39,603 nt of DNA from Parcubacteria group bacterium LiPW_15 (GTDB lineage: Bacteria; Patescibacteriota; Minisyncoccia; UBA6257; 2-01-FULL-56-20), in assembly GCA_007375645.1 (NCBI GenBank), contig VMER01000004.1, positions 1 through 39,603 of the forward strand, given 5' to 3'. Positions 28,508-33,750 of this stretch are shown here, piece by piece. Under the pieces are notes generated by a model. The model was not told where the DNA came from. It did not search any database and worked only from the letters and a program-made list of their open reading frames with translations. Numbering within the stretch: the first letter of the stretch is position 1; every line of letters begins with the position of its first letter. Both the position numbers and the translations under genes were made by a program.

Positions 28508-28626
28508 TTGCCGGCACATCCTACTTTCCCGAGGCCCGAAGGCCCAAGTATCATCAGATTTGGACGCTTTCACTTCTCTGTTCGGAATGGGAAGAGGTGG
28601 GACACATCCAAATAAAACACCGGCAA
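28508..28626 (-). rRNA. rrf: 5S rRNA
   Basis: Minus strand reads UUGCCGGUG...CCCACCUCUUCCCAUUCCGAACAGAGAAGUGAAA...GAUGAUACU...GGGAAAGUAGG...GCCGGCAA. Confidence 0.95.
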
Positions 28627-29082: not shown

Positions 29083-29847
29083 CTGTTGAATTAGCCGCTA
29101 GCGACTAGTAAATAGCCACTAGGGTTCATTGTCCATCATTGCTGATGGGATCGGACTATACCATCACCCGAACATTTATGTTTTTGGGTGGTTGACGTGT
29201 TAGCAAGGCTTATGCCTCACTCTGCTCTTTGCATTTTTAGAGCAAGTCTCTACGGGGTCAATACACGTTTCTTTCTTTTTTTGGAATAATTGAGCTCCCG
29301 ATAAGAATCGATAAGCGTAAGCAGAGTCGAAAAATCTTTTTCGTTCTCAACCTTCGCTTTCAGTTCAATTATCTTAAGCATTAGTTCCAATTGTCTTTTC
29401 TTCAAAATGACGAATGGTTTTACCGACTCCAGGAACTTTTTGATGTCATCTATTTTACTGATGGCATATTCCAGGATTCCGTCTTTCCTTTCGCGCATTT
29501 TTCCGCATCCAATAAGTTCGCATACCGCTTCAAAGTTTTCCTTATCTTGGGCGGACTGAAACAACACTACGTACAGAGCGATTTGGAATCCGTACCGATA
29601 GGTAGAATTCGGTTTTGCTCTTACATAAATGCTGCCGTCCCCATCAAGGAAACCGGCGATATATGCTCTTTTATTGGACGATAAAGACTTTGATAACATG
29701 TACGACTTCCCTCGATATTATCCTAACATATGACAGGTTGAATGTCTTGTATTGTTAGGACTTCATCGATATGAGTCAACTTATGCATCCAGTTATTCCT
29801 AACTGGAGCCGCCGTGTGTTCGATGTCATTTCCTCGGGTTCATTTTG
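29083..29847 (-). mobile_element. Group I intron at 23S position 2593 (E. coli numbering), 765 nt
   Basis: Interrupts GGGUUCAAACCGU^CGUGAGACAG; 5' exon ends in U and intron ends in G; IGS CACGGCGG (29809-29816) forms P1 and P10; core elements CGUAGAGACU and GGUAUAGUCC are present. Confidence 0.93.
29250..29699 (-). CDS. Single-motif LAGLIDADG homing endonuclease, I-CreI-like
   Basis: YIAGFLDGDGSI...KPN..Y...QI.L.....Q...E.IG.G...FL....PF..LK..Q..L.LKIIE follows the I-CreI pattern along its length. Confidence 0.93.
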   Translation of the reverse strand: MLSKSLSSNKRAYIAGFLDGDGSIYVRAKPNSTYRYGFQIALYVVLFQSAQDKENFEAVCELIGCGKMRERKDGILEYAISKIDDIKKFLESVKPFVILKKRQLELMLKIIELKAKVENEKDFSTLLTLIDSYRELNYSKKRKKRVLTP

Positions 29848-31280
29848 ACGGTTTGAACCCAGCTCACGTGGCCTTTTAATTGGCGAACAGCCAAACGCTT
29901 GGGAGCTTCTCCACCCCCGCGCTAGGCCGAGCCGACATCGAGGTGCCGAGCATGATCGTCGCTGTGGACGCTCGGATCATACTAGCCTGTTATCCCCGGA
30001 GTAGCTTTTATCCGTTGTCTCCGACCGTTCTATTAAGTGTCGTCGGGTCACTAAGTTCTGCTTTCGCATCTGCTCGACTTGTAGGTCTCGCAGTTAAGCC
30101 GGCTTTTGCCTTTACGCGTCGTGCCCGGTTTCCATCCGGACTAAGCCGACCTTAATAAACTCCTCCGTTACTCTTTAGGAGGAAAACGCCCCATTTAAAC
30201 TACCCGCCAGACACTGTCCCAGTTAGGTTTACCTTTTTGGGCTTCCTAACCGGTTAGCTTTTAAAATTGTGAAGATGGCTGTTTCATTGTCGAGTCCACG
30301 CAAACCGAAATCCACGTATCAACCTCTCACCACTACGCTACGCATCAAAACTCTAAAAGCAATATCAAGCTATAGTAAAGCTTCCGGGGTCTTTTCGTCC
30401 CGCTGCAGGTATCCCGCGTCTTCACGGGAATCGCATTTTCACCGAGCTCATCGTTGAGACAGTTCTCCAGTCGTTACGCCTTTCGTGCGCTTCGGAACTT
30501 ACCCGAAAAGGAATTGCGCTACCTTAGAACGGTTATAGTTACCGCTGACATTGACGAGGGCTTCGGGCGGTACGTAACACACCTTGCGGCATGCCACATC
30601 CACCGTTAACCTTCTCGCATCGGTCAGGCGTCACCCCCTATACATCCTATTGCTAGTTAGCAGGGAGCTGTGTTTTTGGTAAACAGTCGCTAGAGATACT
30701 TTCGCTGCGGCTCCGCTTGCGCGGAGCAGGCCTTATCCCGAAGTTACGGCCGCTTTTTTGCCGAGTTCCTTAACGATGACTCACTCGTTCCCCTTAGGCT
30801 TCTCGCCTCACCCACCAGTGGCGGTTTACGGTACGGAAGCCACACTATCGCTTTACTGGGTTTTTCTCGGAAGGCTCTTCGTTCACGTCCGCCCGGTAAA
30901 AACCGAACGTTCTCCCTCTCTCGGCCGAAGCCTTCAAGCAGGAATGCCAAACCAATAAGGCACGTGAATTTATTTTCTTCGTCCCCCAGATATGATAATG
31001 CGGCTGTGCAGGAATATTAACCTGCTGTCCATCAGCTGCGGCTTTCGCCATTGCCTTAGGGCCGACTAACCCGTGGTTGATTGCCAGTGCCACGGAAACC
31101 TTGGATTTGCGGGGTCTCAATTTCTCATTGGGATTGTGGTTACTCATTCCAACATTCTCTCTTCTTGGCGCTCCACGGGTCCTCGCGGATCCCGCTTCGC
31201 AGCAGCCAAGAATGCTCTCCTACCACTTGCGGACTTGATTGAGGAGGCGAGTTTGGTACTCGCCGGAAACCTGAAAGGCG

Positions 31281-31356
31281 TGGTGTGTCGTAGAGGACTT
31301 GAACCCCCAACTGAGAGATTTAGAGTCTCCCGCTCTACCAATTGAGCTAACGACAC
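31281..31356 (-). tRNA. tRNA with CUA anticodon (putative amber suppressor), Lys-like body, CCA encoded
   Basis: GTGTCGT TA GCTC AATTGGTA GAGC G GGAGA CT-CTA-AA TCTCT CAGTT GGGGG TTCAAGT CCTCT ACGACAC A CCA: a canonical 76-nt cloverleaf. Confidence 0.88.
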
Positions 31357-31389
31357 ACGCTTCCTTTCGAAAAGAACTGGTCAAAGAAA

Positions 31390-31465
31390 TGGAGCAGGTG
31401 GAAGGATTCGAACCCCCGACCCCCGGCATCCTGTGACGGTGCTCTGCCCACTGAGCTACACCCGC
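31390..31465 (-). tRNA. tRNA-like gene, Gly-type acceptor (G1-C72, C2-G71, U73), aberrant anticodon arm (nominal AGG)
   Basis: GCGGGTG/CACCTGC-T-CCA with normal D and T arms; anticodon arm CCGTC-ACAGGAT-GCCGG has a mismatch and C at position 33. Confidence 0.72.
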
Positions 31466-31485
31466 TCATTTCTTTTCTGAGAATT

Positions 31486-31564
31486 TGGTGGAACTGGGTG
31501 GATTGCAACCACCGACCTCCCGAGACCCTCTCGGGCGCTCTTCTGCTTGCTGAGCTACAGTCCC
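31486..31564 (-). tRNA. tRNA-like gene, Ala-type acceptor (G3-U70, A73), closed anticodon loop (nominal GGG)
   Basis: GGGACTG/CAGTTCC-A-CCA; anticodon arm CCCGAGA-GGG-TCTCGGG; D loop lacks GG; T loop TTGCAAT. Confidence 0.7.
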
Positions 31565-31590
31565 ACTTATTTCTTTTTGAAGAAGATCAA

Positions 31591-31665
31591 TGGTGGGCGG
31601 TAGTCGATTCGAACGACTGACCGGCGGCCTATCGAGCCGCTGCTCTTCCGCTGAGCTACCCGCCC
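31591..31665 (-). tRNA. tRNA-like gene, nominal Ile(GAT), Ile/Val-like body, C33
   Basis: GGGCGGG/ACCGCCC-A-CCA (7-66 mismatch); GCGGC-TCGATAG-GCCGC; AGTCG-TTCGAAT-CGACT. Confidence 0.75.
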
Positions 31666-31710
31666 ACTCACTTTTCTTCTTATCTTTCACATGTATTGAT
31701 TCCCAAGAAA

Positions 31711-31800
31711 TGGTCGGGTCGGCAGGAATTGAACCCGCGACCCCGTCGGTCCCGAAGCGCTTCGGCTTTGACGTGCTCTGCCAGGCTGAGCTACGACCCG
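31711..31800 (-). tRNA. tRNA-Pro-like gene (C1-G72, A73) with ~13-nt insertion in the anticodon arm
   Basis: CGGGTCG/CGACCCG-A-CCA, D loop AGCCTGGCA; anticodon region CGTC-AAAG-CCGAAG-CG-CTTCGG-GACC-GACG; 90 nt. Confidence 0.7.
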
Positions 31801-32610
31801 ACCTTTCTTCCAACATGTGTAGACTGCCCGTTCTTAAGGAGTCATCGGAGTTTTGATGGGCTTGGTTTCACGCGAAGCGTGAACCATCAAAACGAGATAC
31901 AGGCGCAAAATTTCCGCTGGAGAAATTTTGACGCCGGTCCTTAAGAACGGGCAGTCGTGATCCTCAATCAAGTCCGCAAATCCATAGCTTCGGTAGCGCG
32001 CTTAGCCCCGGTACATTTTCGGCGCTCCATACCAATCGAATAGTGAGTTGTTACACACTCTTTAAAGGATGGCTACCTCTAAGCCAACCTCCTATCTGTC
32101 CATGGTACAAAACTGCCTTTTACACTTAGCGCGCATTTAGGGACCTTAGCTTATGGTCTGGGCTGTTCCCCTCACGTACACGGAGCTTAGCCCCCGCGTA
32201 CTGACTACCTGGATTCCATGCACGGTATTCGGAGTTTGATTGGTCGGGCAGTCTTTCGACTATTACCGACCATCCAGTGCTCTACCCCCATGCATTACCG
32301 CCAGGCGCTAGTCCTAAAACTATTTCGGAGAGAACTAGCTATTACCGAAATCGATTAGCTTTTCACTCCTTACCCCAAGTCATCCGAGAGTGTTGCACAA
32401 CTCACCGGTTCGGACCTTCCTCCATCTTTCGACGGAGTTCATCCTGCTCAGGGCAAGCTCTTCCGGCTTCGAGTCTTATGCACGCGACTATCCTAAAAGG
32501 ATTACGCCCTATTCAGACTCGGTTTCCCTATGGATGCTCCCCCTAGGGGGATTATCCGAGCCACGTGCACAAAGTCGTTGGATCATTCTTCAATAGGCAC
32601 ACTATCGTCC

Positions 32611-32880
32611 GCTGCATCCCGAACAAATAAAGCGAGATATTGGTGGATTCGGCTTCTGCCGATTCCGCGACGCTCCGACGAAAGTGTAGTCTCGATGAAA
32701 CTACATTGAGGAGGTGCAACAATGGAATCGGCGAAGTCCGAATCCATACCAGATTATTTTTATTTCTGGCTTCGTTGCGCGTCGCTCATGTATCAGCTTC
32801 TGATACACATCGCTTCTTGCGCCTGGCCAGAAATAAAAATTCTTCTGGCCAATGCTCGTTCTATTTGTTCGGGATGCAGT
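32611..32880 (-). other. Structured non-coding intervening sequence in 23S helix 25
   Basis: Perfect 18-bp closing stem (32612-32629 with 32862-32879) at the E. coli ~545 position, with several internal hairpins. Confidence 0.85.
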
Positions 32881-32949
32881 CTAGACTTTAGTTCCTTGTA
32901 GACAAATGGTTTCAGGTTCTATTTCAACGGCCTCACCGGCCTGCTTTTA

Positions 32950-32980
<31 letters not shown>

Positions 32981-33750
32981 ATCATCAAAAGTATTTAGCC
33001 TTGCCTGATAGTACAGGCGAATTCCTTCAAGGCTTTCTTACCTTGAAGTACTCAAGAAAATAAACTAAAAAGTTCATCTGTTTTCGCCTACGGGGCTATC
33101 ACCCACTTTGGCTTCGCTTTCCAGCGAATTCGACTAACAAATGATTTTGTAACTTCTCCTTAGATCTAACCGCTATGCACTAGAGATGCACACAGCGGTT
33201 AAATCCAGTGTCTATTTCTTATGACCCCAAAAATAAATCTTGCGAAAAACTTTTGGTTTAGGCTCTGCCCGTTTCGCTCGCCGCTACTAAGGGTATAAAG
33301 ATTTTTCTTTTTTCCACCAGGTACTGAAATGTTTTACTTCCCTGGGTTCGCTCCTTGGCTTGCGCCAAGATAATTGAGGTTTACTCAATTGGGTTGCCCC
33401 ATTCGGAAATCCCCGGATCATCGGTTGCTACACACCTTCCCGAGGCGTATCGCCGCTACGCTGCGTCCTTCGTCGCCTTTTGATGTCAAGGCATCCACCA
33501 TTCGCCCTTATGCCAGCCATCCCAATGCTGATTTAACTTAAATGCGGACTTAATTTCTATTAAGTCTTACCTTTAATTTACCCAATCACCTTCATAAGGT
33601 GTTGGGGTTCGCATACTTCGATTTTCAAATTTCAGGAATGTATATTCACGAAAAAACCGCTGAGAGTCCAGCGGTTCCAGAGTTCGTCAAAGAGACGGCT
33701 TTAGACCGCAGAGACTATTGGTTTTATCTGAATATTCATTCGTGAGGATA

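Follow-up and report, generated by a model that had tools for sequence, protein, structure and literature searches.

Does a transfer RNA (tRNA) that would read the amber codon serve a bacterium as a stop-codon suppressor when many of its genes end at TAG, or did the anticodon arise as a by-product of another history? This question is raised by a tRNA-shaped element with the anticodon CUA at positions 31281..31356 (minus strand) of contig VMER01000004.1 from Parcubacteria group bacterium LiPW_15 (assembly GCA_007375645.1). The window analyzed here is the whole 39,603-nt contig, one of five in a 98%-complete assembly of 791,784 bp; this genome is designated G000, its contigs C1, C2, C5 and so forth, and its relatives bear other G numbers. 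The sequence reads back to groundwater metagenome runs, and the four runs examined consist of DNA contigs. The element, unit 5 of an array of five tRNA-shaped units, lies within an intervening sequence (IVS) of the 23S ribosomal RNA (rRNA) gene. We consider it probable, with modest confidence, that unit 5 is a foreign and redundant copy of tRNA-Lys(CUU) that carries CUA incidentally, and not a suppressor maintained by selection.

Unit 5 displays all the features of a canonical elongator tRNA, as the initial annotation had recognized. ARAGORN reports a tRNA of 76 nt with the anticodon cta at position 34 (C34 U35 A36, positions 31321..31323 on the minus strand, TAG on the plus strand), and the Rfam tRNA model (RF00005) matches it with 65.5 bits (gathering score 29, E = 3.4e-12), a value about equal to the 65.2 bits of the genuine tRNA-Lys(CTT) of the same genome. 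The acceptor stem comprises 7 bp (GTGTCGT/ACGACAC) and is followed by U8 and A9, a D arm (GCTC-AATTGGTA-GAGC) with G18 and G19, an anticodon stem of 5 bp (GGAGA/TCTCT) with the loop C32 U33 C34 U35 A36 A37 A38, a variable loop of 5 nt, and a T arm (GGGGG-TTCAAGT-CCTCT) with T54, T55 and C56; the 3′ end consists of A73 followed by CCA, which is encoded in the gene. None of the other four units has a canonical 7-nt anticodon loop, their loops being aberrant.

The ARAGORN label for this unit, tRNA-Pyl, reflects the anticodon only. The hallmarks of tRNA-Pyl are a 6-bp anticodon stem, a 3-nt variable loop, a small D loop without GG and the accompanying PylS/PylBCD proteins. The resemblance of unit 5 is confined to the CUA anticodon and the label; it is set apart by an anticodon stem of 5 bp, a variable loop of 5 nt, the GG of its D loop and a normal T loop. 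PylS was not found in G000 (the PylS_Cterm profile gives 19 bits against a cut-off of 178; PylS only, pylBCD not being searched). The genome encodes a single lysyl-tRNA synthetase (LysRS, C5:323271-324698), which belongs to class II.

The body of unit 5 points to tRNA-Lys as its source. The best of the phage-database matches that cover the unit are annotated tRNA-Lys genes with 73–78% identity, and tRNA-Lys is named in 14 of the 20 matches listed. A search pattern derived from the 5′ half of the unit, in which the anticodon was left free, matched 10 viral loci; all nine tRNAs recovered from them are tRNA-Lys (UUU in seven, CUU in two), with identities to unit 5 of 74–82% that are inflated because the pattern itself fixes about 31 positions. 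The common bacterial Lys acceptor stem (GGGTCGT/ACGACCC) is a single compensated pair apart from that of unit 5. When the anticodon is masked, the genuine tRNA-Lys(CTT) of the nearest relatives reaches just 70%, the same value as tRNA-Tyr, and the assignment of the body to tRNA-Lys, proposed at the outset from the ends of the gene, is therefore good but not overwhelming. Unit 5 lacks a tRNA-Lys anticodon (UUU/CUU), having A36 in place of U36, and Lys(CUU) is also resident in the inserts of relative G012 and of metagenome locus L086. The simplest history would be a foreign tRNA-Lys(CUU) in which U36 changed to A.

The five units are foreign to the tRNA set of the host. None exceeds 67% identity to any genuine tRNA of G000, a result that led us to reject duplicated host tRNAs as their source. 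A similarity of 15 of 17 positions between the anticodon arm of unit 5 and that of the host tRNA-Tyr could be due to chance and was set aside. Genuine tRNAs for Ile(GAT) (C5:323-395) and Pro(GGG) are encoded outside the insert of G000. The closed genome G012 contains tRNA-Lys(CTT) in its insert plus a genuine copy at C1:514855, and in G120, whose tRNA inventory recovered 47 of 48 Rfam tRNA matches, the insert-borne Arg(TCG) and Thr(GGT) are also encoded at C38:421 and C18:2936. A second array is found in G120 (C25:1997-2229; L140, L144, L146), with an extra Pro(CGG), Arg(GCG) and Arg(TCT); it is located on the opposite strand and, by estimate, just upstream of the 23S gene, the 5′ end of which is unmapped. 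All three of its anticodons are duplicated elsewhere in G120.

The array sits in the 23S rRNA gene, which an Rfam LSU_rRNA_bacteria match of 1981 bits (model positions 1-2925) delimits to 29728..33520 on the minus strand; the gene extends over 3793 nt compared with 2925 positions in the large-subunit (LSU) model. All five units (31800..31281, minus strand) are inside this gene, and in a truncated alignment they appear together as one insertion, located at LSU model position 1218 within a hairpin loop. Because the insert is within the gene, it is co-transcribed with the 23S precursor. The initial annotation had assumed expression at the level of rRNA, and the location within the 23S gene itself goes beyond what it claimed outright.

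Model position 1218 presumably corresponds to helix 45. The insert is situated in a hairpin loop and is closed by a long stem, and relative G060 has an open reading frame (ORF) of the Pfam family 23S_rRNA_IVP (E = 1.1e-28) at the same site. H45 (E. coli 1170-1178) is tabulated among the tolerated insertion sites in PMC2441807, and the IVS of Coxiella is located in helix 45 according to PMC4990558. On the strength of the IVP ORF and these two papers, we identify the hairpin that carries the insert as helix 45, where 23S IVSs are classically found.

The rRNA regions of metagenome bins are often misassembled, and a chimera in which tRNA genes were misjoined into the 23S gene would explain the arrangement trivially. 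A public contig of 1028 nt, built separately and possibly from the same sample, matches 31038..32065 without a single difference, crosses both junctions of the insert and contains the same CTA anticodon. Moreover, ten genomes of the family, which are separate assemblies, and metagenome contigs share the architecture and the site, and a perfect 17-bp stem closes the insert. An assembly error is hardly credible given these matches.

The IVS encompasses about 750 nt including its basal stem (31229..31977, minus strand, as are all of its parts). The 5′ strand of the stem (GCGGACTTGATTGAGGA, 31961..31977, 17 bp) is the perfect complement of the 3′ strand (TCCTCAATCAAGTCCGC, 31229..31245), and the two are paired in the minimum free energy fold. 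Directly 5′ of the 3′ strand is a small hairpin, GGCGAG...CTCGCC (31246..31264), which is also found in relatives with the same type of stem, even in G084, whose insert is free of units. At the other end, positions 31822..31956 form a hairpin element with perfect inverted ends of 19 bp (GACTGCCCGTTCTTAAGGA), defined from the fold and from repeat comparison. Its core of about 50 nt (CCGGCG..hairpin..CGCCTGTATCTCG) has two further copies in G000, at C2:163693-163741 and C5:348210-348266, with 79–88% identity and each within a different outer hairpin, and recurs in the relatives G039, G040, G037, G096, G124 and G019. The element has no match to an Rfam family; it may represent a mobile hairpin or else a structured RNA that has not been described before.

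The five units are parted by A/T-rich spacers. In unit 1 (31711..31800; ARAGORN 'tRNA-??? (gaag)', Rfam tRNA 44.4 bits), an extended hairpin replaces the anticodon arm, and the unit ends in ACCA. Unit 2 (31591..31665; ARAGORN Ile(gat), Rfam 51.7 bits) has the loop UCGAUAG with C at position 33 and also ends in ACCA. Unit 3 (31486..31564), recognized by ARAGORN as Pro(ggg) and from its sequence, has no Rfam match above the gathering score; a 7-bp stem with a 3-nt loop takes the place of the anticodon loop, and the acceptor end contains G3-U70, A73 and CCA. Unit 4 (31390..31465; ARAGORN Pro(agg), Rfam 47.7 bits) has a defective anticodon stem, G3-U70, U73 and CCA, and homologues in two relatives' contigs. 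Units 1 to 4 are thus tRNA-shaped yet, judged by their anticodon arms, unable to decode. CCA is encoded in all five units versus 7 of the 45 genuine tRNAs of G000.

The G3-U70 wobble is common to units 3 and 4, and unit 3 also has G1-C72 and G2-C71. G3-U70 with G1-C72, G2-C71 and A73 constitutes the identity set of alanine tRNAs, which AlaRS reads independently of the anticodon. Because their acceptors carry alanine identity features, the anticodon-less units 3 and 4 might be chargeable with alanine.

The insert region is strongly structured. The 761 nt from 31225 to 31985 fold far better than shuffled sequences (z = -15.3; none of 20 shuffles equal), and the predicted fold recovers the cloverleaf of unit 5, the T arm of which is missing from the centroid, and largely those of units 1 and 3. 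In this fold, the sequences on either side of units 1, 3 and 5 are base-paired to one another, which lengthens the acceptor helices to about 9–10 bp and involves A73 and C74. Extended acceptors are also seen in units of relatives (G003, L086).

One alternative is that the insert stays in the ribosome, the modules forming a helix-45 expansion segment on the mature 50S subunit, in which case unit 5 would never be a free tRNA. This alternative finds support in the basal stem and the GGCGA..TCGCC hairpin, the sequences of which are conserved across genera even where units are lacking (G084), in the lengthened acceptor helices, which include A73 and C74, and in the tolerance of engineered tRNA-like tags in 23S rRNA noted in the introduction of PMC2441807. 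It is less easily reconciled with the excision of classical helix-45 inserts, as given in PMC4990558 and PMC11270868, with the presence of an RNase III gene, or with a unit number that varies from 0 to 5 among relatives, which hardly fits a structural role. We regard permanent retention of the insert as improbable.

A comparison of the site within the family reveals how the inserts vary. The sample contained 125 genomes, of which 60 have the 23S flank and 57 yielded both anchors; G104 and G105, which belong to the same genus as G000, are outside the comparison because the 23S flank is missing from their assemblies. The anchors are 43–52 nt apart in 30 of the 57 genomes and more than 60 nt apart in 27, with 777 nt in G000, whose helix-45 insert is the longest. 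The inserts are plain repeat-rich hairpins, the one IVP ORF, or a stem-closed kind defined by ACTTCAT(T/A)GAGGA / TCCTC(A/T)ATGAAGT. ARAGORN detects tRNA units in seven stem-closed inserts (G000, G003, G010, G012, G053, G068 and G120). A scan for acceptor and T arms, which is noisy and places several unit borders wrongly, was used just to add G004, G005 and G007, for a total of 10 of the 57 genomes; the stem is present without units in G084 and G011.

Changes in the basal stem are compensatory: TTCAT/ATGAA is replaced by TTGAT/ATCAA in G000, ATTGA/TCAAT by ATAGA/TCTAT in G010, and GACTT/AAGTC by GGCTT/AAGCC in G068. The stem pattern retrieved four loci from a metagenome collection, three of which contain units, and four from a collection of species genomes, all of them already in the sample (G003, G007, G120 and G012).

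The units in these inserts are preserved unevenly. By our own reading, the 18 units called by ARAGORN divide equally into nine with a canonical 7-nt anticodon loop and nine with a non-canonical one, and the canonical anticodons are of eight kinds (CUA, GGA, CGG, UCG, GGU, GUC, UGA, and CUU twice). Large insertions are found within the anticodon arm in units of G005 and G012. Acceptor stems and T arms are intact in all insert units, and CCA is usually kept, while the anticodon arms are broken, swollen or swapped. This pattern indicates that the constraint acts on the tRNA shape and not on decoding.

The anticodon of unit 5 was then compared in the contigs of the two closest relatives (X2 and X6), with the differences as listed. 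The X2 contig (778 nt) is identical to G000 in the flank 31961-32060, and its homologue of unit 5 differs at no fewer than 10 of the 76 nt, six of which are within the anticodon arm. It reads G34 A35 C36, and positions 38, 42 and 43 are changed too; the four listed changes beyond the anticodon arm keep the fold (U4-G69, A49-U65, R57 and loop position 59). The X6 contig (855 nt) has two differences per flank, lacks units 1–3 and keeps the homologue of unit 4, with 364 other letters in place of unit 5. CUA is thus not kept in either contig, and these differences imply a turnover, between genomes this closely related, both of the units present and of their anticodon arms. Since the tRNA shape is maintained across genera without decoding, an incidental anticodon is preferred over a selected suppressor.

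The use of TAG in the genome bears on the same point. Greedy selection of non-overlapping ORFs with a minimum length of 100 aa gave 741, of which TAA terminates 417, TAG 196 (about 26%) and TGA 128. The median distance to the next in-frame stop is equal for the three stops (15, 16 and 16.5 codons), and no nearer back-up stop follows TAG, a second stop being found within 5 codons in 20% of the cases after TAG, 27% after TAA and 25% after TGA. Long continuations specific to TAG are not enriched (TAG 108, TAA 201, TGA 120, counts that include non-coding frames). The genome encodes both an RF1-type release factor, whose motif is PKT (PxT), and an RF2, whose motif is SPF. On this basis, there is no sign of TAG recoding in G000, where TAG is a common stop and RF1 is present, in agreement with the earlier view of TAG as a normal stop.

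RF1 of G000 (C5:75828-76562, 242 aa) is devoid of about 110 N-terminal residues, the match to Pfam PCRF beginning at profile position 101. When 21 genomes of the family and order were searched, 20 gave a match, and in 18 of these RF1 is short, the match starting at profile positions 107–113. It is a lineage trait of the whole order and therefore not tied to the CUA tRNA, and was rejected as a correlate of suppression.

Canonical CUA tRNAs are rare in related genomes. With a pattern of the loop context, the 401 genomes sampled from the order yielded tRNAs in two cases (G000 and G204), and the 401 sampled from the phylum in G000 only. The further phylum matches, in G827, G527 and G671, are not tRNAs, and ARAGORN reports none there. 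A second pattern, applied to 401 genomes of the class, found two (G000 and G1107). The three samples overlap and contain three CUA tRNAs altogether.

In G204, the tRNA is the last of three CCA-ending units of an array (L112 1302-1555), the other two having non-canonical loops. This array is free-standing, between ORFs that resemble MnmA and an adenosyltransferase by their translations; after it come about 100 nt of unassigned sequence, at the end of which is a hairpin that resembles a terminator. The CUA tRNA of G204 shares 73–74% identity with unit 5, pairing being preserved where the two differ in the acceptor and stems, and the first unit of its array is 74% identical to unit 4; these identities are slightly above the best background of genuine tRNAs (68–69%). 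G1107 has a lone CUA tRNA (L161 1479-1552) with its own terminator and A8 instead of U8, upstream of an ORF resembling seryl-tRNA synthetase (serS).

Several of these observations weigh against an incidental anticodon. The tertiary positions of unit 5 are flawless (U8, A14, A15-U48, G18 G19, T54 T55 C56 and A58), where pure drift would be expected to produce decay like that of units 1–4. Unit 5 retains U35 and A73, the main determinants for LysRS, which makes its charging plausible. Other contigs from X6 and X7 span the anticodon (summed depth 62–73 and 38), with no difference among those listed. G204 and G1107, from the same class, hold canonical CUA tRNAs in the same loop context and outside rRNA genes, which raises the chance that such tRNAs exceed noise, but is no proof of enrichment because both were found by searching for CUA. 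Finally, the excision, processing and charging of unit 5 are steps that we infer from sequence, and in the predicted fold the 5′ leader of unit 5 pairs with A73 and C74, an arrangement that disfavors RNase P.

A rival explanation is that unit 5 is a working, selectively maintained amber suppressor that inserts lysine, cut from the 23S precursor by the enzymes of tRNA maturation and charged by the class-II LysRS. It would compete with RF1 at UAG, and its benefit could be a read-through coupled to growth, with proteins extended at the C terminus or individual genes regulated in this way, or an altered outcome of infection by TAG-recoded or TAG-rich phages. A perfect cloverleaf with encoded CCA and the Rfam score of a genuine tRNA, a Lys-type body with U35 and A73 that is one step from CUU, the X6 and X7 contigs that span the anticodon with no listed difference, the recurrence of canonical CUA tRNAs in G204 and G1107, and an RF1 without its N-terminal domain are all consistent with this proposal. 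The scarcity of CUA tRNAs (three in the three samples) can be counted in its favor as well, that of G204 also being placed among degenerate units ending in CCA. By contrast, CUA is not kept in the contigs of the two closest relatives, TAG accounts for a quarter of the stops without compensating back-up stops or TAG-specific extensions, the short RF1 is shared by the order independently of the tRNA, the neighboring units are plainly non-decoding, and the two further genomes come from a search for CUA that gives no count of enrichment. The amber read-through proposed in the initial annotation receives no support as a selected trait from these comparisons, and we judge a selected suppressor to be unlikely.

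A relation to phages was also considered. The array could be the relic of a phage or mobile tRNA array, including the suppressor of a TAG-recoded phage, that decays without a role in the helix-45 loop. Its units are foreign to the host, their content changes between close relatives, and the insert carries a repeated hairpin element with inverted ends; furthermore, unit 5 finds its best partial matches among tRNA-Lys genes of phages, and its loop context, CUCUAAA, is shared with CUA tRNAs on 15 viral contigs. However, a close phage relative was not found: the closest CUA tRNAs in IMG/VR match at 59 of 73 positions, 19 of which are fixed by the pattern, and the viral tRNA-Lys genes reach at most 82%, with much of the sequence again fixed by the pattern. 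The pattern of unit 4 matches nothing in the viral contigs, and no phage genes are present nearby. The acceptor and T arms with CCA are retained across genera as the anticodon arms decay, which suggests constraint over free decay. A phage relic, as first put forward, is a doubtful explanation to which we give little weight.

We therefore return to the incidental anticodon as the favored explanation. Unit 5 would be a foreign copy of a bacterial-type tRNA-Lys(CUU), altered from U36 to A and now one of five tRNA-derived modules of an IVS, with the helix-45 loop as an insertion-tolerant surface site that hosts them. The insert is probably removed from the precursor: the 17-bp basal stem would be cleaved by RNase III, and the tRNA-shaped units would be processed by RNase P together with 3′ trimming nucleases, with a two-piece 23S rRNA as the outcome. 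Genes for RNase III, for RNase P RNA of type A and for a CCA-adding enzyme are present in G000. CUA would then be an incidental state of an anticodon free of decoding selection. If unit 5 were released and lysylated, it would nevertheless be a Lys-inserting amber suppressor produced in step with rRNA.

A bolder version of this pathway would make the helix-45 insert a docking site for foreign tRNA genes that are excised by tRNA maturation, one passenger of which is now a Lys-inserting suppressor. The tRNAs would then be made one-for-one with ribosomes, the 23S rRNA would be fragmented by an organelle-like tRNA punctuation, and UAG would be read through across a genome in which a quarter of the genes end in TAG and RF1 has no N-terminal domain. 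We hold this combination to be quite unlikely.

Several further features were noted at the locus and in the genome. The 23S gene contains smaller insertions of about 55 nt near LSU model position 312 and of at least 70 nt near position 583, and no 16S gene is present within the window. An ORF for a 149-aa LAGLIDADG_1 endonuclease (29250-29699, minus strand, E = 3.2e-11) is found in the space that separates the 3′ end of the 23S match (29728) from the 5S gene (28509-28624); the Rfam 23S alignment does not cover it, and it is not in a recognized intron. In the whole-genome ARAGORN output for G000, tRNA-Phe was not found and just one tRNA has a CAT anticodon. In a second tRNA-His(GTG), located at C5:156561, the D loop is odd and lacks GG, and the sequence of the T loop is GTGCAAGT.

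The insert resembles the classical helix-45 IVSs of Salmonella, Coxiella and Leptospira in its site, its long basal stem, its patchy distribution (27 of 57 genomes here), the IVP ORF of a relative and the presence of RNase III. It differs from them in its cargo, a tRNA-shaped array with one canonical tRNA, and in that its excision is predicted here. Genes for tRNAs also occur in the 16S-Ile-Ala-23S spacers of rRNA operons, and tRNA punctuation processes the transcripts of organelles. As in these systems, the units of G000 are co-transcribed and could be released by RNase P and 3′ nucleases, breaking the precursor. Unlike spacer tRNAs, they are inside the coding body of the 23S rRNA, mostly non-decoding and redundant with the real tRNA set.

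Known amber suppressors include supE and supF of E. coli, tRNA-Lys(CUA) constructs and the Sup-CUA tRNAs of phages. Unit 5 is likewise probably a sense tRNA brought to CUA by a one-base change of the anticodon, and has the loop context of the 15 viral-contig tRNAs. It is set apart from them in that it is not a mutated host tRNA-Lys, has no close phage relative and resides in an rRNA insert, and its suppression is a prediction.

Insertions in rRNA genes of the candidate phyla radiation (CPR) were reportedly first described in a paper of 2015. A survey of CPR rRNA insertions from 2024 (PMC11270868) includes short non-intron inserts at known IVS sites and long unexplained ones; the word tRNA does not occur in its main text, although its supplementary insertion tables might mention such inserts. 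Full-text literature searches returned no description of a 23S IVS that contains tRNA genes or tRNA-like modules, and, as far as these searches reach, tRNA-shaped modules within the coding body of a bacterial 23S rRNA have not been described.

Taken together, these results partly support the initial annotation: the canonical amber tRNA with a lysine-type body stands, and drift of a spare copy accounts for the CUA tRNA more plausibly than a device made for recoding. Should the tRNA be inactive, it would show that stop-reading anticodons arise easily in redundant tRNA copies, and the case cautions that a 'Sup' tRNA call alone need not mean recoding. A perfect CUA tRNA made with rRNA, in a genome with about a quarter of TAG stops, provides a natural test of how suppression is tolerated or how such a tRNA is silenced. 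The modules offer a concrete, testable case of probable rRNA fragmentation, perhaps by tRNA-processing enzymes, and show that in genomes of less than 1 Mb foreign RNA genes have the helix-45 loop as a landing pad.

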